This document shows positions 2,892-53,735 of a stretch of 64,000 nt of DNA, in pieces (position 1 is the stretch's first letter; every line of letters begins with the position of its first letter). Under the pieces are notes generated by a model, which saw nothing but the letters and a program-made list of their open reading frames with translations, was not told the DNA's origin and did no database searches. The stretch comes from Octopus vulgaris (Eukaryota). The stretch covers positions 29,636,001 to 29,700,000 of the forward strand of contig OX597831.1 of the NCBI GenBank assembly GCA_951406725.2. Reading direction: 5' to 3'. The translations under genes and the position numbers were made by a program.

Positions 2892-2957
2892 TGCATGTAT
2901 GTATGTATATGTATATATGTAGATATATATGTATATATATGTATGTATTCATGTATG

Positions 2958-3021
<64 letters not shown>

Positions 3022-3043
3022 TATATATATATATGTACACAGA

Positions 3044-3089
3044 GGCAGTCCGACGATGACTTAGCTGACGAAACTTCGAAGTCATTGTC
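3044..3089 (+). ncRNA. Candidate minimal type I hammerhead ribozyme (U4C core variant)
   Basis: GGCAGT-CCGACGA-tgacttagctgac-GAAA-CTTCGAAG-TC-ATTGTC: 6-bp stem I with G-U pairs, palindromic stem III ACTTCGAAGT, GUC site. Stem II is weak. Confidence 0.55.
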
Positions 3090-11372: not shown

Positions 11373-11814
11373 CGCATGAGTGCGCGTGTGTTTACACAAG
11401 AGCGAGCGCAAATAGGCTTGCAGAAACGCAAATATTGTAATTGCTCTGATCTTGCGTTCAGGGAAATTACACACTACCGGCGCATACAGGAAAAAGCTGG
11501 ATTGCCACAGTTGCATCTCAGCCCAGTCATAGCTTATTTATTGCTAAACACCAGCACTCATACATACACACGCGCTACATTCAAGCATATGCACTCACAG
11601 GTATACTCATACTTCTTAAAAGTTAAATACACTCAGTCATACATACACACATAAATACATATAGACATACAAACATACATGCATTCATATAAATATATAT
11701 ATATATATATATAATTAAATGATAAGGGTAGAAATTGATATCAATTAATTAAAACCAGTGGTTTAGCATATCTAAAAATCCGAAGATTAAAAATTGTTAC
11801 ATACAAAATTAAGA

Positions 11815-11886
<72 letters not shown>

Positions 11887-11892
<6 letters not shown>

Positions 11893-12033
11893 TTAAGCAG
11901 CAGAAAATTCAACAAAATCTGTTACTCTGAGTTTCTCGTTGCCGTTCATCAGACAGTTTTTGCTAGAATGGAACTGATATATCAATTCCTCAGAGTAACT
12001 GATTTTGTTGAATTTTCTGCTGCTTAAAATAAA
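11887..12033. repeat. Inverted repeat with ~45-bp arms overlapping the hammerhead
   Basis: TTTATTTTAAGCAGCAGAAAATTCAACAAAATCTGTTACTCTGAG versus CTCAGAGTAACTGATTTTGTTGAATTTTCTGCTGCTTAAAATAAA, one mismatch. Confidence 0.95.
11911..11964 (-). ncRNA. Minimal type I hammerhead ribozyme
   Basis: Minus strand: AGCAAAAACTGT-CTGATGA-aCG GCAA CGa-GAA-ACTC A GAGT-A-ACAGATTTTGTT. Canonical core, GNRA-capped stem II, near-palindromic stem III, ~11-bp stem I, GUA site at 11923. Confidence 0.75.
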
Positions 12034-12103
12034 GCATATTACTCTACCACTGGTATTTGAGTACTCTTTTTTCCACCTTGTTTCACATTTATGTGTTTAC
12101 TCC

Positions 12104-12169
<66 letters not shown>

Positions 12170-13761: not shown

Positions 13762-14402
13762 TTGCAGGAACCTTTCTTAAAATGTAACCCCAATCATCAG
13801 GCCTCTACATCACTTTATCATAGTTTGATACTAAAAATCATATTTTAATTTTAAACATATAAGTATGTGTATGTGTAAATAGGTTCGCCGGACCTTACTG
13901 TACAAGCCATAATTTAATTAAAATAAAATATAAAAAATAACAAATAAAAATAAAAATAAAAAATACGAATAGAAAATAAAAATTTACAAAAACTATGTTC
14001 TCACGTAACTTATGTCTATAAATATACACATAAAATTAATAATATATAGGGATAAAAATAAAATAAAATAAACTATATACTTGTGATGGTATAAAATGAA
14101 AGGAATGGCAAATAAATATATTCGAATAAAAATGGAAGCAATGACGAATAAATATTTTCGAATAAAAACTATAGTACGAATGACAAAATGCCAAAAGAAA
14201 ATTTACAAATGATACGAATGATAAAAATAAAAAATTTTTCGAAGTAAAAATAACTTAAGGTTAACGTAAAAGAATAAGTATAAATTACCGTTGACTACAT
14301 TGTCCTACTACATCTTAATTTCGGCTTAACGTCGCATGGTTCGGCGAACGACTACACTCCCACCTACTTCCTGCTTCTTTTAAACTATTACTTAATTATC
14401 AT

Positions 14403-14826: not shown

Positions 14827-17365
14827 TTAGACGTGATTAATTAGGCATTTCAGTCTATGTTTACATTTTATTTTTCTTTCCTCCTGACCCGTTTTGGTCC
14901 ATAATATCTCCATGAATTCATGGGTACATAACAGACATGACTAATTTCCAATTCTATACGATTTCGTTTTACATATTATATCCCACTTTAATTCATAATT
15001 GATATCTTTTGACTTTAAACTCCAAACGCATTTACTTAGTCCTATCGAATTCATTAGTTTCTTATTTTTACATGAATTCATATGCTGTGCTATTCGTTGT
15101 TTAATTTTATTCGATATCGACCCAATATACGTCCTATCTGGATAATTTTCAATATCCGTATTATTTATTCCACTATTTTCATTTCTATCTACTTTTACAG
15201 AAACTACACATTTATATACTACATCACTTACATTACATCTTCCATTAAATTTAAAGTGGTTTTTATCCCTACAATTACAACTATTACAGTCTCCAGTCCT
15301 TCTATTCAGATGCTTATATAATTTATCATAGTAATATTTATTCAGCCTATACTTATTTATTGATGAAATAATGTTCCCTACATTGTTAGTAGTTGAAAAC
15401 CCCACTCCTATATTATTTTTAGAGAATATTTCCATATATTTTTTTTATTTTCCATTATAAATGATTCTATTGTATTAGTGATATCTTTAATAATATTACT
15501 TTTAACTTGAGTACCATATGGGACTATCAACCATATTATTTTATTATTTTTATTTATGTTTATATTATTAATCCCTTTATCTTTATTTACACAAGTCTTG
15601 TTATTATCTTCTATATTATTCAAAGTATTGTCTCCATTATGATTTTCGTTTAATTTTAAATCCTTCCCCATTAAACCCAACCTATCCTTATACTTTATAC
15701 CATTTATATTTTTCCTGTTTTTTATGTGTTTTATCATCTTGAATTCCATAAAATTACGCAGTGTGCTATGCTTTTATGACTATTATACATATTATTTTTA
15801 TTTTTATTTTTATTACTATATACATTTCTATTCTTGTCTACATTTACATTTATGTTGCTTCCTATATTAACACTATTTAGGTTACTTATGTTTTTGTATT
15901 TTATATAATTATTCCTGTTAATATTCTTATAGAATTTAATTTCTTCGTTATAACCAGCCTTCCTTACTGCTTCATTGTAGTAGTCAGCGTGTTTTAGGAA
16001 GCTCTCATAATTCGAAGAGGGCATTGATATCCTTTTCCCTATGTTATCTATTAGCGTTTTTTTACCGAGTGGGGGGTGATTACTATCTGCATTTATGTAT
16101 TTTAGGTTTTCATTAAGCTTATGGAAAGGCTGTATTAACCCTGTAGCAATATTCAAATTGGCATCTAAAAAGTTTACGTTATAATGTTCATTATATATAG
16201 TAGTTTCTAACCCGTAATTTTTAAAATACCTGTATAATTTCTTTTTATAATTTTCACGAGTTCTGTTTGTACAATTTTTTGTTATTAAAAGTAAATCATC
16301 CCTATATAAGTCCCCTTCTATATTTAAATCTTCTCATTTTAATTCAGAAAGCAGGTATATCCCAACTAGGTCGGTTACCTGTGCTGAATCTGGCTCTCCT
16401 ATAAGTACATCAAAATACTCGATTGTGTCCTTTCTAGCCCATAATTTATTTTTGTATTTAATGAGTGTTTTTCTTGCTATTTGAACTACCTTAATTTCCT
16501 CCATCGTCATTCCTGTTCTATTTTTAACATATATCAAGGCCTTATTCAAACACTATTTCATTTATGGAAGCATAATAATTATCAATATCTATTTGTATGA
16601 ACTTATATTCTTTATTGTTTGCTATATTTTTAAACTATTGTAAAATTTCCATTGTACTGCCCCATAACTTTAGGTAACCTAAATTATTAAATTTGTTTAT
16701 ATTTATCTAATATTAATTTACTTAATTTCCCTAGGGCATATTAGTAGGACTTTAGGGTCTGCATAGAAATTATCTTTATGGTCTTTTAGCGTTATCCTTG
16801 GGTGCAAAGGCACGTAGGGCTCTGTTTTTTTTAATCTAGTTCATAATTCGTCATAATTTCTTTATAGCACTTATTTATTTTCTCTAAAGTATTACTTTGG
16901 ACTATTTTTTTTGAATTCTTTCTCTAGTAAACTATCATAAGTTTCTGTATCTAATTTATATAAGTTCCTGGTTTTGTCAGATTGTACAAAGATTCCCCCA
17001 GTATTTCTCAGTTCTTTTATCTTGATAGCTAAGTTTTTAAGGTAATTATTATGCCTGTTCGGGTTTTTATGAAATTCTAGATTTTTTACTATCCGCCAAA
17101 TTTTGTCTTCCAAGTTTTGCATTTCTTTATTGTACAGCGGTTCTTTCTTAGATTTAAATTTATTCGTAATAAATCTATTATTGTCTGTATTATTAATGTC
17201 TATAGCATTATCATTATTATGGTAGTGTGCTTTCCATTTAAGTCTATTTATGAAATTCTTTATATCATTAATCAGCTTAATCTTGAATTCTGTTTTTGTT
17301 GGGATAGGTATGTCTTTCAGTGATGAATTCCACTCCAGGGGTACTATCTTATCTGTATATGCCAT
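14827..17365 (-). pseudogene. Penelope-like RT + C-terminal GIY-YIG endonuclease ORF, frameshifted
   Basis: N-term SLKDIPIP...FINRLKWKA; QSDKTRN; motif A FIQIDIDNYYASI; motif B GEPDSAQVTDLVG; LYRDD at 16295-16306; NFLD; SNHPP; CNCRDKNHFKFNGRC linker; VVY...YIG...QRIAQH; C-term CLLCTHE...KCKH after an in-frame TAG. Confidence 0.92.
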
Positions 17366-17476
17366 AATTAATTGTTTAATTATCAAGCTAAACAATAAAG
17401 TTAAACCATTAAATTATTTTATTTTATTTGTTAGGGAATAAAAATTCCGGCATCACAGGGGTTCAAACTATCCTCA

Positions 17477-17865: not shown

Positions 17866-17916
17866 TGTGGGTTCAAGGTCGTTGTGAACCCATGTATATG
17901 TAAATGTATGTATATA

Positions 17917-17973
<57 letters not shown>

Positions 17974-18011
17974 TTACATATACATGGGTTCACAACGACC
18001 TTGAACCCACA
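17866..18011. repeat. Perfect ~44-bp inverted repeat centred on a (TA)n tract
   Basis: TGTGGGTTCAAGGTCGTTGTGAACCCATGTATATGTAAATGTAT and its exact reverse complement. The ORF track gives the same peptide on both strands. Confidence 0.95.
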
Positions 18012-18233
18012 AGAGTAAACAAGAGAGACAGAGACAGGCAGAAACAAGTGAAATGCCCCTTGTATTTGAACATTATGCAGATATTCTTTTAAAAAACTTT
18101 TCTTTTAATTATTCCAAATTTAATTGTTTTCTATACTTAGAGTTGAAAAAAGTCTCAATGACTGAAACCGGAGCTGAAATGTTTTTTTATATAATTATTT
18201 TAGCATTTTCTACCTTGACTTTTTTTCCATATA

Positions 18234-41912: not shown

Positions 41913-42335
41913 CCACACATACATATAATCATAACATTCATGCTATCAAATAGCCCATCACCCAAAATTTCAGGCCTTGTGCCTATAATAGAAAGAATGG
42001 CTTTATGACGTCGTCTTTTACATCATAAAAGACCACTTCATCATTACTAAATATGGAGCCGTTTATCCACAGAATGGCATCAGCTTTCAATTGCGATGCA
42101 AGATGTTCCCACGACAGAACAAGAATCCGTGGCTTTCATTGGTGCTCCATAGATAACAGGATCTCAAAACTATCGACCACACTCCACATTCTTCAACGTA
42201 ATTTAAACATAAAAGTAACAGCCTCATTTTACAGGTCAGCCTTTCTTGACTCATAAACATAAACATAAGAACTGTCTTACTCTTCTCCTGTGTCACTCAG
42301 CCATTTAAAAAAAAAAAAAACCTATGGACTCTTTT

Positions 42336-42550
42336 GGTGGAGGCACATGGCCTAATGGTTAGAGCAGCGGACTCGCGGTCGAGGGATCGCGGGTTCGACT
42401 GACTCTTTCGCCACAAGTTTCTCTCACTCTTTCCTCCTGCATCTAGCAGCTCACCTACGACGGACCGACGTCCTGTCCAGGTGGGGAACCTATACGCCAA
42501 GGAAACCGGGAAACCGGCCCTTATGAGCCAGGCATGGCTCGAAAATGGAC
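42336..42550 (+). mobile_element. SINE with a family C-type head and a third tail type (duplicated at ~48244-48460)
   Basis: GGAGGCACATGGCCTAATGGTTAGAGCAGCGGACTCGCGGTC head; tail GGAAACCGGGAAACCGGCCCTTATGAGCC. Confidence 0.75.
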
Positions 42551-42555
42551 AAACA

Positions 42556-42615
<60 letters not shown>

Positions 42616-42730
42616 AATAAGGGTGCAAAATTGAACATTAATTAGATTAATATCAATTTAAAACCAGTGGCCGAGCATATTGAAAAATCTGAAGATTCAG
42701 AAAAATTATATTACATACATATCAGAGGAA

Positions 42731-42869
42731 TGACCACTAAGTGGACATCCATTATGCTAGAGGTAACCCCATATGGTCTGGCCACCAAGAAAATTGAGAA
42801 CAATCTTTTCTTAGTGGTCAGACCATATTGAGTCTACCTCTAGCATAATGAATGTCCACTTAGTGGTCA
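42731..42869. repeat. Imperfect inverted repeat with ~63-bp arms and a 12-nt loop
   Basis: TGACCACTAAGTGGACATCCATTATGCTAGAGGTA...CCACCAAGAAAA versus TTTTCTTAGTGG...TACCTCTAGCATAATGAATGTCCACTTAGTGGTCA. Confidence 0.92.
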
Positions 42870-43201
42870 ATATATATATGAGTGTGTGTTTGCGTATGCG
42901 TGTTCTGTATGTGTGTGTGTATGTACATGCTGACACGCGCACAGACAAGCGCACGCCTACACTTTGCCTTGGTGCTATTGCAAAATTAATATCTCGCTAC
43001 TGGTGTTGTAGTTATTGTTGCCGTCGTTTTGCCACACTCTCTCTCTCTCCCCTCCCACCCTCACTCTATCTCTATCTCTATCTCCCCTTCTTTTCCATTA
43101 TCTTCTCCTCCTACCACTCCTCGCCGCATTCCTCAATCATCATCAACAAAACACAACATTACACTGTCAGCAGAAATACTGTGTGTGTGTGTGTGTGTGT
43201 G

Positions 43202-43269
<68 letters not shown>

Positions 43270-43650
43270 TGTGAGGTGTGTGCAACAGGATCGGTATGTT
43301 CCATTTAGTGGTCATTAACTTTATACATTGTGCGCGCATGTGAGTGTATGTATATATGTATGTATATATACATACATTCATATATATATGTATGTATTTA
43401 TGTATACATAAATGAATATATATACACATGTATATATATTTATATATATATGTATATATATGTATGAATGTGTGTGTTTCTATATATATGTGTGTGTGTG
43501 TATATATATATATATTTATATATATATATGTGCATATATATACATATATATATGTATATACATATATATATATGTATATACATATATATATATGTATATA
43601 CATATATATATATGTATATACATATATATATGTATATATATATGCATATA

Positions 43651-43721
<71 letters not shown>

Positions 43722-43746
43722 GTATATATGTATACATATATATATG

Positions 43747-43778
<32 letters not shown>

Positions 43779-43794
43779 CATATATATATACATG

Positions 43795-43829
<35 letters not shown>

Positions 43830-43914
43830 GACAGATACATATGTCCATATGTCTTGGTATGTATCTATCTTTCTCTTTCTTTCTCTGCCTCTCCCTTTCT
43901 CTCTTTCTCTCTCT

Positions 43915-43970
<56 letters not shown>

Positions 43971-44056
43971 TAATATCAGGGTAATAAAGATTTTAGAATC
44001 TTTTACTACCAGTGGCCTAGCATGTAGAAAAATTAGTCATAGACTATATATTATTC

Positions 44057-44206
44057 ATATAAAATATAGGGTACATTTAAACACATAAGAGGCATCCGTC
44101 ATAGGAATCCTGGTACGCTAGAAGGAACAGCCAAAGTCCAAACCAATTTGGCTGTTCCTTCTAGCGTTCTACCTCTTATGTGTTTAAAGGTACACTGTAT
44201 TTATAT
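44057..44206. repeat. Fold-back element with a perfect 21-bp inner stem and an outer ~35-bp stem
   Basis: ACGCTAGAAGGAACAGCCAAA / TTTGGCTGTTCCTTCTAGCGT; outer TTTAAACACATAAGAGG / CCTCTTATGTGTTTAAA. Confidence 0.92.
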
Positions 44207-44215
44207 ATCTATATA

Positions 44216-44267
<52 letters not shown>

Positions 44268-44865
44268 AATGTACTTATGGTATCACCTTGAAAACAGTGT
44301 AATCACAAATACGCACACAAACACACACAGACACTAAGTCACGTTGGTGATACCATCACACACACATACACATAAAGCACACATGCACACACATTGTTGC
44401 AGATACATGCGCACAATCACCTTGAGCAGAGGACACTCACACACACACAATATGCACAACGCTATATATAAACTTGTACTGTGAGGTAAACTTAAGCAAC
44501 CCTAGGGTGCTCCTTTAAGGGGGTGGTTTGTTGCTAGTATTTGGACCCGTTTCCTCTTCTATGGTAAACAACCCTCCCCTCCTGACCTAATTTTGGAATC
44601 CTAAAAATCCATTGGGGGGAGGGGTTGGTGTAAGCGTGTTGCTTAGTGGTTAGGGCAATGAACTCATGATCGCAAGACTTCGGTTTCGATTCCCGGACCG
44701 GGCGACGCGTTTATGTTCTTGAACAAAACACTTCATTTCACGTTGCCCCAGCCCACTCAACTGGCAAACATGAGTAATCCTGTCAACTTCTAGCATATGG
44801 ATGTCCACTTAGTGGTCATCCCTCTTATATGTATATATGTATATATATGTGTGTGTGTGTGTGGT

Positions 44866-44908
<43 letters not shown>

Positions 44909-45087
44909 GTATGTACCTGCATACATACAGTACTCACTTAACGTCATTGATAATAAGATTTTGAGAAGTGTGACTTTAAGTGAAACGAGGTAAATCGAAA
45001 CTTCTGAATTGCTAGCTTTGAATCTCGGAAACTTTGCAGTAAATATTCGCCGCTCGGTCACTCTCTCTTAATATTCCTATGTAAAAA

Positions 45088-45475
45088 GGCGGCGAGCTGG
45101 CAGAAACGTTAGCACGCCGGGCGAAATGCGTAGCCGTATTTCGTCTGCCGTTACGTTCTGAGTTCAAATTCCGCCGAGGCCGACTTTGCCTTTCATCCTT
45201 TCGGGGTCGATAAATTGAGTACCAGTTGCGCACTGGGATCGATGAAATCGACTTAATCCCTTTGTCTGTCCTTGTTTGTCCTCTCTGTGGTTAGCCCCTT
45301 GTGGGTAGTAAAGAAATACGTATTTCGTCTGTCGCTACGTTCTGAGTTCAAATTCCGCCATGGTCGACTTTACCTTTCATCCTTTCGGGGTCGATAAATT
45401 AAGTACCAGTTGTGTACTGGGGTCGATCTAATCGACTTAACCCCCTCCCCTCAAATTTCAAGGCTTTGTGCCTGC
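45088..45475 (+). mobile_element. SINE family B dimer (long tail then short tail; duplicated at ~50896-51285)
   Basis: Canonical head. The second body starts at TATTTCGTCTG. Confidence 0.9.
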
Positions 45476-45485
45476 ATTAAAAAGG

Positions 45486-45544
<59 letters not shown>

Positions 45545-45814
45545 GATTATTATTATAATAATAATAATAATAATAATTATTATTATTATTTAAGACTGGC
45601 TGAATCGTTAGCATGCTAGATGAAATGCTTAGTGGCATTTCATCCGTCTCTGCGTTGTGAGTTCGATTTTGCCTTTCATCCTTTCGGGAGGTCGATAAAA
45701 TAAGTACCAGCTGAGCACTGGACACCGGCAGGTGGGGTCGATGTAATCAACTTACCCCCCTGCTTCGATATTGCAGGTCTTGTGCCTATAGTATAAATGA
45801 TTATCATTACTATT

Positions 45815-45985
45815 GATGATGGTGATGATGATGATGATGATGATGGTAATGGTGATGATGATGATGGTGGTGGTGGTGGTGGTGGTGGTGGTGGTGGTGG
45901 TGGTGGTGGTGGTGGTGGTGATGATGGTGATGGTGATGGTGATGGTGATGGTGATGATGGTGATGGTGATGGTGATGATGATAAT
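45815..45985. repeat. (GAT)n/(GGT)n trinucleotide array, with (ATT)n at 45486-45590
   Basis: Directly visible. Confidence 0.95.
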
Positions 45986-46733
45986 GACGCAAGGGGAGGA
46001 GGTGCAGGAAAATTGCACGACTAGTAAGGTTTGCCTAGCGTATTTATTTATTTATTTATTTATCACAGAATGAAAAGCGCAACAATATGGAAGAAGGGAA
46101 ACGTAAAACGAAAGCGTACTGAGTAGCAGCGACGTTAATAACGACGCTAAACGAAATTACGTTTCCTGGGGATTCCCTGTATATACGCATAAATATGCGT
46201 GTGTGTTTGTATGTGTGTGTATGTCGCATACAAAAATAGAGATTATAAAATTGCGTAAATAATCTTTATTAAACAACGTAATGCAAATATAGACGTATAC
46301 ATCCTATGCATAGATAATACATATATTTTATAAATACATACCTATATATAAATATATATCCATGTATGTGAATATATACATATATAAATGTACATATGTG
46401 TGTGTATCTGTGTGTGTGTATCTGTGTGTGTGTGTGTGTGTGTGTGTATGCATACAACTCACTCTCCATACATGTCTCACGCACAAGCACTACCCCCACA
46501 TACATTCATGCACTCAACACTCACCAGCACCCCCGCATACCGACACAAAACCCAAACAACTGCCGCTAAGTGCCTTATCTTTGTGAAGACATGTAATCCA
46601 GCTGCATTAATCTACTGTGAATGCGTGTGTGTGCATACATCTACATATATAAAATGTGTTCATATGCACGCAGGTGTATTATTCTGTCTGTATGTTTATA
46701 TGTGGTTTGTATGCGCACACACACACACACACA

Positions 46734-46766
<33 letters not shown>

Positions 46767-46906
46767 ATAGAGAGAGAGCTTCTTAAAAAAATATATATAT
46801 GTATATATATGTATATTTATAAAGTTTTTTTACGTTATTGTTGGCTAGGTTCCTGGCTAGATTGGGTGTGGTGGAGTAGGAGAGTCTAATGGTGTTCTTA
46901 TTAAGG

Positions 46907-46957
<51 letters not shown>

Positions 46958-47174
46958 TCTCTTTCTCTCTCTTTTACTTGTTTCAGCCATTTGACTGCGA
47001 CCATGCTGGAGCACCGCCTTTAGTCGAGCAAATCGACCCCGGGACTTATTCTTTGTAAGCCCAGTACTTATTCTATCGGTCTCTTTTTGCCGAACCGCTA
47101 AGTGACGGGGACGTAAACACACCAGCATCGGTTGTCAAGCAATGCTAGGGGGACAAACACAGACACACAAACAT

Positions 47175-47248
<74 letters not shown>

Positions 47249-47563
47249 GTCAGGCTTCTTTCATTTTCCGTCTACCAAATCCACTCACAAGGCATTGGTC
47301 GATATATATCGCAAATAAGAAAATGGAGGAGAACTATAGGTGGTTCATCAACTTTTGGACATTAAAATATTAACTTATTTATTTATTAAACTGATAATTA
47401 TAATAACATACATACATATAACATATTATTCTTTGCATATAAGATATAAGATATAAAACATAGTTAAATATAAGGATACCAATAATTATTACAAAAAACA
47501 TGAATATAAAATACATAGGCGCAGGAGTGGCTGTGTGGTAAGTAGCTTGCTAACCAACCACAT

Positions 47564-47663
47564 NNNNNNNNNNNNNNNNNNNNNNNNNNNNNNNNNNNNN
47601 NNNNNNNNNNNNNNNNNNNNNNNNNNNNNNNNNNNNNNNNNNNNNNNNNNNNNNNNNNNNNNN
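47564..47663. other. Assembly gap (100 N)
   Basis: Run of exactly 100 N. Confidence 1.
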
Positions 47664-47813: not shown

Positions 47814-48462
47814 CCACACACCCACACATACATATAATCATAACATTCATGCTATCAAATAGCCCATCACCCAAAATTTCAGGCCTTGTGCCTATAATAG
47901 AAAGAATGGCTTTATGACGTCGTCTTTTACATCATAAAAGACCACTTCATCATTACTAAATATGGAGCCGTTTATCCACAGAATGGCATCAGCTTTCAAT
48001 TGCGATGCAAGATGTTCCCACGACAGAACAAGAATCCGTGGCTTTCATTGGTGCTCCATAGATAACAGGATCTCAAAACTATCGACCACACTCCACATTC
48101 TTCAACGTAATTTAAACATAAAAGTAACAGCCTCATTTTACAGGTCAGCCTTTCTTGACTCATAAACATAAACATAAGAACTGTCTTACTCTTCTCCTGT
48201 GTCACTCAGCCATTTAAAAAAAAAAAACCTATGGACTCTTTTGGTGGAGGCACATGGCCTAATGGTTAGAGCAGCGGACTCGCGGTCGAGGGATCGCGGG
48301 TTCGACTGACTCTTTCGCCACAAGTTTCTCTCACTCTTTCCTCCTGCATCTAGCAGCTCACCTACGACGGACCGACGTCCTGTCCAGGTGGGGAACCTAT
48401 ACGCCAAGGAAACCGGGAAACCGGCCCTTATGAGCCAGGCATGGCTCGAAAATGGACAAACA

Positions 48463-48520
<58 letters not shown>

Positions 48521-49079
48521 AATAAGGGTGCAAAATTGAACATTAATTAGATTAATATCAATTTAAAACATGTGGCCGAGCATATTGAAAAATCTGAATA
48601 TTCAGAAACATTATATTACATACATATAAGAGGAATGACCACTAAGTGGACATCCATTATGCTAGAGGTAACCCCATATGGTCTGGCCACCAAGAAAATT
48701 GAGAACAATCTTTTCTTAGTGGTCAGACCATATTGAGTCTACCTCTAGCATAATGAATGTCCACTTAGTGGTCAATATATATATGAGTGTGTGTTTGTGT
48801 ATGCGTGTTCTGTATGTGTGTGTGTATGTACATGCTGACAAGCGCACAGACAAGCCTACACTTTGCCTTGGTGCTATTGCAAAATTAATATCTCGCTACA
48901 GGTGTTGTAGTTATTGTTGCCGTCGTTTTGCCACACTCTCTCTCTCCCCTCCCTCCCCCCCTCACTCTATCTCTATCTCTATCTCCCCTTCTTTTCCATT
49001 ATCTTCTCCTCCTACCACTCCTCGCCGCATTCCTCAATCATCATCAACAAAACACAACATTACACTGTCAGCAGAAATA

Positions 49080-49164
<85 letters not shown>

Positions 49165-49372
49165 TGTGAGGTGTGTGCAACAGGATCGGTATGTTCCATT
49201 TAGTGGTCATTAACTTTATACATTGTGCGCGCATGTGAGTGTATGTATATATGTATGTATATATACATACATTCATATATATATGTATGTATTTATGTAT
49301 ACATAAATGAATATATATACACAATATATATTTATATATATGTATATATATGTATGAATGTGTGTGTGTTTC

Positions 49373-49403
<31 letters not shown>

Positions 49404-49548
49404 ATGTATGTATATATATACATATATACATATATATATATGTATATACATATATATATATGTATATATATATATATATGTATACATATATATATGTATA
49501 TACATATATATATGTATATATATATGCATATATATATGTATATATATA

Positions 49549-49647
<99 letters not shown>

Positions 49648-50023
49648 CACAGATACATATGTCCATATGTCTTGGAATGTATCTATCTTTCTCTTTCTTT
49701 CTCTGCCTCTCCCTTTCTCTCTTTCTCTCTCTTTCTATATATATATATATATATATATAGATATATATAGATATATATAATTAATAATATCAGGGTAATA
49801 AAGATTTTAGAATCTTTTACTACCAGTGGCCTAGCATGTAGAAAAATTAGTCATAGACTATATATTATTCATATAAAATACAGGGTACATTTAAACACAT
49901 TAAGAGGCATCCGTCATAGGAATCCTGGTACGCTAGAAGGAACAGCCAAAGTCCAAACCAATTTGGCTGTTCCTTCTAGCGTTCTACCTCTTATGTATTT
50001 AAAGGTAATGTATTTATATATCA

Positions 50024-50073
<50 letters not shown>

Positions 50074-50673
50074 AATGTACTTATGGTATCACCTTGAAAA
50101 CAGTGTAATCACAAATACGCACACAAACACACACAGACACTAAGTCACGTTGGTGATACCATCACACACACATACACATAAAGCACACATGCACACACAT
50201 TGTTGCAGATACATGCGCACAATCACCTTGAGCAGAGGACACTCACACACACACAATATGCACAACGCTATATATAAACTTGTACTGTGAGGTAAACTTA
50301 AGCAACCCTAGGGTGCCCCTTTAAGGGGGTGGTTTGTTGCTAGTATTTGGACCCGTTTCCTCTTCTATGGTAAACAACCCTCCCCTCCTGACCTAATTTT
50401 GGAATCCTAAAAATCCATTGGGGGGGGAGGGGTTGGTGTAAGCGTGTTGCTTAGTGGTTAGGGCAATGAACTCATGATCGCAAGACTTCGGTTTCGATTC
50501 CCGGACCGGGCGACGCGTTTATGTTCTTGAACAAAACACTTCATTTCACGTTGCCCCAGCCCACTCAACTGGCAAACATGAGTAATCCTGTCAACTTCTA
50601 GCATATGGATGTCCACTTAGTGGTCATCCCCCTTATATGTATATATGTATATATATGTGTGTGTGTGTGTGGT

Positions 50674-50716
<43 letters not shown>

Positions 50717-51294
50717 GTATGTACCTGCATACATACAGTACTCACTTAACGTCATTGATAATAAGATTTTGAGAAGTGTGACTTTAAGTGAAACGAGGTA
50801 AATCGAAACTTCTGAATTGCTAGCTTTGAATCTCGGAAACTTTGCAGTAAATATTCGCCGCTCGGTCACTCTCTCTTAATATTCCTATGTAAAAAGGCGG
50901 CGAGCTGGCAGAAACGTTAGCACGCCGGGCGAAATGCGTAGCCGTATTTCGTCTGCCGTTACGTTCTGAGTTCAAATTCCGCCGAGGTCGACTTTGCCTT
51001 TCATCCTTTCGGGGTCGATAAATTGAGTACCAGTTGCGCACTGGGATCGATGAAATCGACTTAATCCCTTTGTCTGTCCTTGTTTGTCCTCTCTGTGGTT
51101 AGCCCCTTGTGGGTAGTAAAGAAATACGTATTTCGTCTGTCGCTACGTTCTGAGTTCAAATTCCGCCATGGTCGACTTTACCTTTCTATCCTTTCGGGGT
51201 CGATAAATTAAGTACCAGTTGTGTACTGGGGTCGATCTAATCGACTTAACCCCCTCCCCTCAAATTTCAAGGCTTTGTGCCTGCATTAAAAAGG

Positions 51295-51356
<62 letters not shown>

Positions 51357-52544
51357 GATTATTATTATAATAATAATAATAATTATTATTATTATTATTA
51401 TTTAAGACTGGCTGAATCGTTAGCATGCTAGATGAAATGCTTAGTGGCATTTCATCCGTCTCTGCGTTGTGAGTTCGATTTTGCCTTTCATCCTTTCGGG
51501 AGGTCGATAAAATAAGTACCAGCTGAGCACTGGACACCGGCAGGTGGGGTCGATGTAATCAACTTACCCCCCTGCTTCGATATTGCAGGTCTTGTGCCTA
51601 TAGTATAAATGATTATCATTACTATTGATGATGGTGATGATGATGATGATGATGATGGTAATGGTGATGATGATGATGGTGGTGGTGGTGGTGGTGGTGG
51701 TGGTGGTGGTGGTGGTGGTGGTGGTGGTGGATGATGGTGATGGTGATGGTGATGGTGATGGTGATGATGGTGATGGTGATGGTGATGATGATAATGACGC
51801 AAGGGGAGGAGGTGCAGGAAAATTGCACGACTAGTAAGGTTTGCCTAGCGTATTTATTTATTTATTTATTTATCACAGAATGAAAAGCGCAACAATATGG
51901 AAGAAGGGAAACGTAAAACGAAAGCGTACTGAGTAGCAGCGACGTTAATAACGACGCTAAACGAAATTACGTTTCCTGGGGATTCCCTGTATATACGCAT
52001 AAATATGCGTGTGTGTTTGTATGTGTGTGTATGTCGCATACAAAAATAGAGATTATAAAATTGCGTAAATAATCTTTATTAAACAACGTAATGCAAATAT
52101 AGACGTATACATCCTATGCATAGATAATACATATATTTTATAAATACATACCTATATATAAATATATATCCATGTATGTGAATATATACATATATAAATG
52201 TACATATGTGTGTGTATCTGTGTGTGTGTATCTGTGTGTGTGTGTGTGTGTGTGTGTATGCATACAACTCACTCTCCATACATGTCTCACGCACAAGCAC
52301 TACCCCCACATACATTCATGCACTCAACACTCACCAGCACCCCCGCATACCGACACAAAACCCAAACAACTGCCGCTAAGTGCCTTATCTTTGTGAAGAC
52401 ATGTAATCCAGCTGCATTAATCTACTGTGAATGCGTGTGTGTGCATACATCTACATATATAAAATGTGTTCATATGCACGCAGGTGTATTATTCTGTCTG
52501 TATGTTTATATGTGGTTTGTATGCGCACACACACACACACACAC

Positions 52545-52576
<32 letters not shown>

Positions 52577-52716
52577 ATAGAGAGAGAGCTTCTTAAAAAA
52601 ATATATATATGTATATATATGTATATTTATAAAGTTTTTTTACGTTATTGTTGGCTAGGTTCCTGGCTAGATTGGGTGTGGTGGAGTAGGAGAGTCTAAT
52701 GGTGTTCTTATTAAGG

Positions 52717-52765
<49 letters not shown>

Positions 52766-52984
52766 TCTCTCTTTCTCTCTCTTTTACTTGTTTCAGCCAT
52801 TTGACTGCGACCATGCTGGAGCACCGCCTTTAGTCGAGCAAATCGACCCCGGGACTTATTCTTTGTAAGCCCAGTACTTATTCTATCGGTCTCTTTTTGC
52901 CGAACCGCTAAGTGACGGGGACGTAAACACACCAGCATCGGTTGTCAAGCAATGCTAGGGGGACAAACACAGACACACAAACAT

Positions 52985-53055
<71 letters not shown>

Positions 53056-53373
53056 TACGTCAGGCTTCTTTCATTTTCCGTCTACCAAATCCACTCACAA
53101 GGCATTGGTCGATATATATCGCAAATAAGAAAATGGAGGAGAACTATAGGTGGTTCATCAACTTTTGGACATTAAAATATTAACTTATTTATTTATTAAA
53201 CTGATAATTATAATAACATACATACATATAACATATTATTCTTTGCATATAAGATATAAGATATAAAACATAGTTAAATATAAGGATACCAATAATTATT
53301 ACAAAAAACATGAATATAAAATACATAGGCGCAGGAGTGGCTGTGTGGTAAGTAGCTTGCTAACCAACCACAT
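47664..53373 (+). repeat. Copy 2 of the ~5.8 kb tandem duplication
   Basis: Starts CGCTGCCTTCATTACTG as at 41761. Differs mainly in microsatellite lengths and scattered SNPs/indels. Confidence 0.97.
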
Positions 53374-53735
53374 TGTTCCGGGTTCAGTCCCACTGCGTGG
53401 CATCTTGGGCAAGTGTCTTCTACTATAGCCCCGGGCCGACCAATGCCTTGTGAGTGGATTTGGTAGTCGGAAACTGAAAGAAGCCTGTCGTATATATGTG
53501 TATATATATGTGTGTGTGTATATGTTTGTGTGTCTGTGTTTGTCCCCCTAGCATTGCTGGACAACCGATGCTGGTATGTTTACGTCCCCGTCACTTAGCG
53601 GTTCGGCAAAAGAGACTGATAGAATAAGTACTGGGCTTACAAAGAATAAGTCCCGGGGTCGATTTGCTCGACTAAAGGCGGTGCTCCAGCATGGCCGCAG
53701 TCAAATGACTGAAGCAAGTAAAAGAGTAAAAGAGT
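53328..53735 (+). mobile_element. SINE family A; inverted partner at 52789-53110; further copy at 53862-54225
   Basis: Full head and tail. Confidence 0.9.

Follow-up and report, generated by a model that had tools for sequence, protein, structure and literature searches.

An inverted pair of truncated repeat ends carrying a dimer-type hammerhead motif in a (TA)n microsatellite of Octopus vulgaris

The window analysed here, a 64,000 nt (64-kb) stretch of Octopus vulgaris DNA, is AT-rich host DNA dense in microsatellites and contains a 220 nt fold-back (11887-12106) set between two (TA)n tracts. The locus is a known kind of insertion: probably the end of a Penelope-like element (PLE), placed in (TA)n, which has a tail and is accompanied by a truncated copy in inverse orientation. 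On balance, we regard it as two truncated copies of the 3′ end of one repeat, lying head to head, which would have been made by dual priming on uncut RNA in a (TA)n target. The stop of the second copy beside the ribozyme most likely reflects chance or a local structural pause rather than a record of cleavage.

Element positions are counted from the predicted cut: H17 of the hammerhead (11923) is 0 and the next base is +1; a position x of one arm corresponds to 23920-x in the other. The features of the locus are as follows.

11817 to 11885: left (TA)n tract, 69 nt, likely the target site
11881 to 11988, minus strand: arm 1, the element end between -65 and the short 3′ terminus, which lies at +36 by exact match and at +42 if two substitutions are allowed
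11911 to 11964, minus strand: type I hammerhead of the dimer type, predicted cut after 11923
11924 to 11932, minus strand: palindromic helix III, 9 nt, predicted to form an 8-bp intermolecular duplex (-7.4 kcal/mol)
11970 to 11989: near-palindrome of 20 nt, site of the 5′ truncation of arm 1
11988 to 11989: head-to-head junction, -65 joined to -8, rare in the family
11989 to 12033, plus strand: duplicated part of arm 2, -8 to +36, with the uncut GUA/A junction kept
12034 to 12106, plus strand: extension (tail) of arm 2, to the long 3′ terminus at +109; the family termini are at 12039 (short) and near 12102 (long)
12040 to 12063, plus strand: bulged tail hairpin just beyond the short terminus, common to relatives and the published Hydra-2_Amil
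12106 to 12167: right (TA)n tract, 62 nt

The inverted arms (11887-11931 and 11989-12033) are identical in 44 of 45 positions; the lone mismatch is 11920/12000, and the arm 2 base at 12000 is private to the window copy. Compared with shuffled sequences the fold-back has a z of about -10 (-10.1; 0/200), and approximately 1e-12 such pairs are expected by chance. The first-pass annotation had let the inverted copy start at CTCAGAG and run on into a longer terminus ending in (TA)n, and both statements are correct: the right arm begins at 11989, which is C15.2 of helix III, and continues for 73 nt past the duplicated part until (TA)n is reached at 12106. It had also concluded that the breakpoint coincides with the ribozyme. 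This applies to the window copy insofar as -8 lies within helix III, but the position precedes the cut by 8 nt, and family junctions are scattered. On its other side (11988, which is at -65) the junction abuts the near-palindrome 11970-11989, which had not been mentioned. Microhomology at 11988/11989 is absent on both sides when the window is compared with the family continuation. The short end is found on the ribozyme arm and the long end on the inverted arm, and arm 2 exceeds arm 1 by 67-73 nt at the 3′ end; L013, L032 and L060 are similar in this respect. Such an excess of arm 2 over arm 1 means that the locus is not a snap-back copy. Among the contigs listed from the sequencing runs, none spans the whole fold-back locus.

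Judged by its sequence the hammerhead motif is real, and self-cleavage is predicted only. On the minus strand it consists of the core (11952-11946), GAAA (11935-11932) and GUA (11925-11923), with a stem I of 4 bp (11956-11953 with 11922-11919) and a stem II (11945-11936) of two Watson-Crick pairs, a GCAA loop and an A.A closing mismatch (10.1-11.1). The CUGANGA core, GAAA and the NUH at the three-way junction make it a type I hammerhead; the motif lacks the canonical 10.1-11.1 pair and a stable monomeric helix III. The earlier description as a canonical type I hammerhead on the minus strand therefore holds for type, core and coordinates, but this is a short, dimer-type motif with an A.A mismatch and no monomeric helix III; near-identical motifs are filed under "canonical" in the supplement of Craig et al. 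(PMC8557442). It is the single hammerhead of this type within the window. Rfam did not recover it at the gathering score, nor at E values up to 10.

A search with the core pattern yielded 65 metagenome loci, which by eye were divided into 48 animal-like loci and 17 chance matches. The same pattern gave 11 prokaryotic matches in GTDB and none in viral contigs; the 17 metagenome and 11 GTDB matches were used as chance controls. For the alignment of relatives, 42 of the 48 animal-like loci were aligned with the window; three loci without flanks as well as L024, L055 and L060 were left out. A model built without the window found the hammerhead in the window with 37.4 bits (E 9.4e-10), the next match having 11.9 bits, and the 28 control loci reached 13.9-31.2 bits on a sister model. 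Core and helix III were fixed by the search pattern. Stems I and II covary: in the 42 distinct rows 84.6% of the cells are paired, compared with 77.0 +/- 0.9 after shuffling (0/500), and 8 stem pairs are changed on both sides. Position 10.1-11.1 is unpaired in 34 of the 42 distinct related rows.

In the monomer, helix III has a predicted pairing probability of 0.00, and it is predicted to form only as the duplex listed above; the minimum-energy fold of two copies is a double hammerhead (-22.8 kcal/mol, versus -20.6 kcal/mol for two monomers). When the whole fold-back is folded, the pairing of stem I drops to 0.00 and that of the arms is at least 0.999. Because the arm hairpin abolishes stem I pairing, a read-through transcript is predicted to be inactive, as the long hairpin in the transcript of the finished locus would unfold the ribozyme. 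Within the family, U4 (11951) is C in 65%, 57% and 31% of the depth in runs X1, X2 and X5, and position 11.1 (11936) is A, G or U; these variants may mark subfamilies or CpG decay.

Of 24 sequencing runs listed, 20 contain the stretch, under 8 coded organism labels; contigs of the family were gathered from four runs. The family is very abundant, with 13,536, 6,545 and 5,189 contigs in the three DNA-type runs; the fourth, X15, contributed 5 records, is presumed to be RNA and was used for sequence order only, not for expression. Its record 10 has the native order tail-ribozyme-upstream. The summed depth, which does not equal copy number, is 2-3 million on the arms versus about 950-1,560 at 11989-11996 (0.05-0.09% of the peak). 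Among the 20 of 414 loose ends listed, (AT)n follows behind 12039 (+42) in 73, 29, 37 and 1 contigs per run and behind 12102 (+105) in 31 (X1) and 33 (X5) contigs. The family thus has two recurrent 3′ ends against (TA)n, at +42 and about +105 from the cut, and this pair of ends matches the "tail" pattern of PLEs. Among the rows listed, (TA)n precedes 11887 in 17 contigs of X1, and family sequence runs on past 11988 in 10-23 contigs per DNA run. Two minority alleles, with 36% and 39% of the depth in X1, are common to both arms, which points weakly to one source element for both.

Upstream, the loose end of the family is only about 30 nt long, and no second copy was found elsewhere in the 64-kb window. 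Its own ORF is thus not reached, and the family may be non-autonomous. Exact family patterns had no match in metagenome and viral contigs, and four short family motifs were without a match in the supplement of PMC8557442, where line breaks might mask one. Compared with this one catalogue, the family appears to be undescribed.

The stub is likely the 3′ end of a Hydra-clade PLE. The 65 metagenome loci gave four weak blast hits with the window's family and are not the same family. Of the relatives, 18 were translated, and in at least 7 of these a PLE endonuclease ORF ends upstream of the ribozyme. In relative L010 such an ORF end is followed by the ribozyme and then by another ORF, which has RWK; RWK and CxCX5C were recognised by eye, both of which are listed with CxxC and CxH as Hydra-clade features (PMC8557442). 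Pfam analysis of the PLE pieces returned GIY-YIG with an E value of 0.022, below the cutoff, and otherwise nothing relevant. The same 4-1-4 helix III occurs in 5 of the 26 Hydra hammerheads listed in the PMC8557442 supplement. A strict version of the tail hairpin is present at +44 in the window, in 11 of the 43 animal-like loci with enough sequence and in 0/28 others. The published Hydra consensus sequences end at +30 to +48 in 10/24 and at +97 to +135 in 8/24 cases (24 of the 26 rows were computable). Altogether, the locus shows the Hydra-clade traits of insertion into (TA)n and a hammerhead of the File S2 type with a tail hairpin, as well as the PLE trait of an adjacent inverted 5′-truncated copy with a tail at one end. 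Three of the relatives (L005, L030 and L053) are tandem repeats of approximately 146 nt with the same hammerhead core and are retrozyme-like.

The anatomy, the abundance, the two ends, the scattered junctions and the likeness to Hydra-clade ribozymes and tails are observed; two priming events, an uncut template and end-joining we infer. Both cut ends of the (TA)n target would each prime reverse transcription on uncut element RNA. The first cDNA would start at the short site (+42), the base of the conserved hairpin, and stop at the palindrome (-65); the second would begin at the long site (+109) and end at -8, immediately beyond helix III. The two cDNAs would then be fused by end-joining without microhomology. 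Since arm 2 keeps the GUA/A junction and bases upstream of it, the template should have been uncut or religated. As the recurrent (TA)n ends at +42 and approximately +105 are the starts expected for PLE reverse transcription, judging from PMC11167929, -8 would be a copying stop and not a priming point.

Insertion into (TA)n, a tail at one end and adjacent inverted 5′-truncated copies are all described in PMC8557442. According to PMC11167929, a PLE protein cuts and extends both strands, starting at two internal RNA sites; unprocessed RNA is used, ribozyme mutants still insert, and RNA-seq reads starting or ending at the hammerhead cut are reported as absent. Motifs similar to the one found here cleave weakly and as multimers only, not as monomers (PMC4209133). 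An uncut template agrees with both papers. Counted against our reading is that the in vitro work in PMC11167929 was done with a Poseidon element, not a Hydra element, and that the tail described there is 30-40 nt long versus 63-67 nt here.

The first-pass annotation had seen in the fold-back a possible record of template switching or priming near the cleaved RNA end, and had proposed to map breakpoints across the family relative to the GUA site. The junctions come from the 15 joint rows listed out of 68 and the 12 table rows listed out of 32; four duplicates and one go-back joint were removed. The remaining 22 same-strand junctions are all distinct among the rows listed, each from 1-2 contigs per run, and their ends span -45 to +88. 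Six of the 22 have an end at -9 to +2, an excess that is not significant (p 0.13-0.34 with a uniform null, among the rows listed); ends at -1, 0 and +2 are among those found, and in one junction an arm ends at exactly -8. Because the aligned pieces were split where the window copy has its private mismatch (12000), the count of second arms that begin between -8 and +3 is too low, and many rows give the sequence between the pieces as not known; the apparent dearth of right-arm starts at -8 to +3 in the family is an alignment artefact. Breakpoints in the family thus differ in 22 of 22 listed junctions, and a weak hint of positioning comes from the relatives (three of five). Five independent head-to-head pairs are found among the 48 relatives.

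L032: inverted arm starts at -6 to -2, 4-nt microhomology
L060: inverted arm starts at -2 to +1, 2-nt microhomology
L058: inverted arm starts at +1 to +7, 6-nt microhomology, which is stem I itself
L013: inverted arm starts at -51 to -68
L045/L055: inverted arm starts at about -56; the two are 220 nt apart and possibly two insertions

Three of the five start within -6 to +7 of the cut, all with microhomology (p 0.002-0.04, with crude uniform nulls, n=5 and an interval picked after seeing the data). In all four fold-backs that are readable at both ends (window, L013, L032 and L060) the short end is on one arm and the long end on the inverted arm. Relative L025 contains a tail-to-tail junction (2929-3046), in which the 3′ end of the inverted copy lies at the start of helix III. 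In titles and abstract openings of the literature (subscription papers being outside the scope) no map of PLE inversion breakpoints relative to the hammerhead was found.

Because three of five relatives break near the cut and a second family junction has an end at -8, chance may not fully explain the stop. A possible, though not probable, variant keeps the two-cDNA insertion and makes the uncut ribozyme the preferred stop or joining point: two RNAs would be paired via helix III, the long-site cDNA would stall at this point, and microhomology would come from the complementarity of stem I or helix III. The starts at -8 (window) and in L032, L060 and L058, the L025 junction, the six family junctions with an end at -9 to +2 and the predicted preference of two copies for the double hammerhead fit this variant. 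The non-significant family excess, the distant breaks in L013 and L045/L055, the 966-nt inverted copy of Penelope-13_HM (PMC8557442 supplement) and two other fold-backs with a short and a long arm in the window that have no detectable hammerhead speak against it, and the interval -9 to +7 was chosen post hoc with n=5. A generalisation of this variant is slightly less likely: Hydra-clade PLEs would integrate via two RNAs held by the palindromic helix III, starting at the base of the tail hairpin and approximately 65-75 nt further on, and the second cDNA would tend to stop and join at the ribozyme.

The reading of the first-pass annotation is improbable. In it the ribozyme cleaves, the cut end of the RNA is where reverse transcriptase primes or runs off, and a template switch produces the inversion; for the window copy this would require religation of the cut RNA before it was copied. 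It would account for the inverted arm of L058, which reaches exactly +1 and no further, for L060 if a one-base variant is permitted, and for the family ends at -1, 0 and +2. The joint of L058 is also explained by the 6 nt self-complementarity of stem I, however, and the window arm contains the intact junction together with 9 nt from before the cut, whereas a cleaved 3′ product would start at +1 (11998). Insertion of ribozyme-dead RNA and the reported lack of RNA-seq ends at the cut (PMC11167929) argue against it as well, as does the poor activity of similar motifs as dimers and their inactivity as monomers (PMC4209133). What stands is that the junction is likely a product of retrotransposition.

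It is very unlikely that the stub belongs to a non-autonomous, retrozyme-like circle and is a rolling-circle copy through the religated cut. In this case a cDNA could cross the cut site, tandem relatives with the same core exist, and animal retrozymes are derived from PLE ends (bioRxiv 10.64898/2026.07.22.740005); but the window copy is not tandem, the family has two fixed ends against (TA)n like PLE tails, and the published element that comes closest is a Hydra element with an ORF. An origin at the DNA level (snap-back, later rearrangement or assembly chimera) can be given equally little credit: the 20-nt near-palindrome at the junction, the lack of a listed spanning contig and an N gap with duplicated flanks in the window would suit it, but both outer ends are family-recurrent termini, 73 nt of the second arm have no counterpart in the first, L013, L032 and L060 are laid out in the same way, and run X1 has 0.95 of 20 sampled words, likely including junction words.

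The window contains further features of this kind. A broken Hydra-type PLE ORF (14830-17400, minus strand) has RWK, DKT, YRDD and a GIY-YIG end as well as stops and frameshifts, and is matched by three ORF pieces of L010 in tblastn (E 1e-17 to 6e-12). It was rejected as the parent of the family and is unlinked to it, since there is no family blast hit in it and the window lacks a 13-nt motif from upstream. Degenerate hammerhead-like cores of other families are located at 3050-3083 (plus strand), about 17800 (minus strand) and 13773-13800 (minus strand), the latter two flanking the PLE remnant; an inverted repeat (17866-18022, about 95% alike, centred on (TA)n) lies just upstream of it. Two microsatellite-flanked fold-backs, 42610-42869 (copy near 48515-48774) and 43965-44208 (copy near 49790-50040), have one short arm and one about 90-120 nt longer, and no hammerhead was detected in them. 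All five window sites of CCACTGGT fall in such fold-back extensions or in the tail of the 11887-12106 locus. A tail-only fragment (11716-11817, minus strand), between two (TA)n tracts, adjoins the fold-back and is 67-78% alike to the extensions 42646-42729 and 43975-44065. This fragment suggests repeated insertion into one microsatellite. Around a 100-N gap (47564-47663), about 42300-47560 and 48200-53400 are near-identical duplicates, possibly an assembly duplication.

The role of the hammerhead in PLEs and the origin of inverted ends and tails are left open in PMC8557442. The family is abundant enough for one genome assembly to offer thousands of junctions, from which a dependence of their position on the ribozyme could be read. 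The tail hairpin at the short end, which is present in relatives from other host assemblies and in Hydra-2_Amil, is a candidate binding or start signal for the Hydra-clade reverse transcriptase. If pairing via helix III were true, the hammerhead would be a template-pairing and stop signal that builds inverted ends, beyond cutting. The locus alone is an ordinary dead insertion.

In L1 twin priming both ends of the target prime cDNA, which leads to an inversion, and the segments overlap little. The locus is alike in the dual priming proposed for it, and differs in that -8 to +42 is duplicated and two fixed internal starts are used. Non-LTR retrozymes (PMC7229834) share a type I hammerhead within an animal repeat, and for HHR_Amex2 a U.U mismatch is described at the helix II base, comparable to the A.A found here; they form head-to-tail tandem arrays, whereas this locus is a single head-to-head pair. 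The minimal PLE hammerheads of Cervera and de la Pena (2014, PMC4209133) have a weak palindromic helix III, depend on dimers and are dispersed as single copies, and their opposite-strand pairs 100-700 bp apart are comparable to the fold-back; their consensus has a long stem II and G10.1-C11.1, in contrast to the short stem II and the mostly unpaired 10.1-11.1 here. Poseidon PAc (Frangieh et al., 2024, PMC11167929) is alike in the two internal starts downstream of the hammerhead that define the tail, and in an AT-rich target of which both strands are cut and extended, as would be the case at our locus; it belongs to another clade with the shorter tail given above, and its ribozyme overlaps the ORF start. 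Closest are the Hydra-clade PLEs catalogued in PMC8557442, which have (TA)n targets, two end positions and, close to the 3′ end, a type I hammerhead whose palindromic helix III is of the 4-1-4 form; their stem II is longer than that of the window motif, and no ORF was seen for the window family. Hydra-1_Obim, a listed octopus family, has a ribozyme different from that of the window's family. Penelope-3_HM has an identical helix III, and Penelope-13_HM an adjacent inverted truncated copy as at the window locus. Hydra-2_Amil shares stem I and the core with the window motif, differs from it in helix III by the central base only, and has a matching bulged hairpin downstream.
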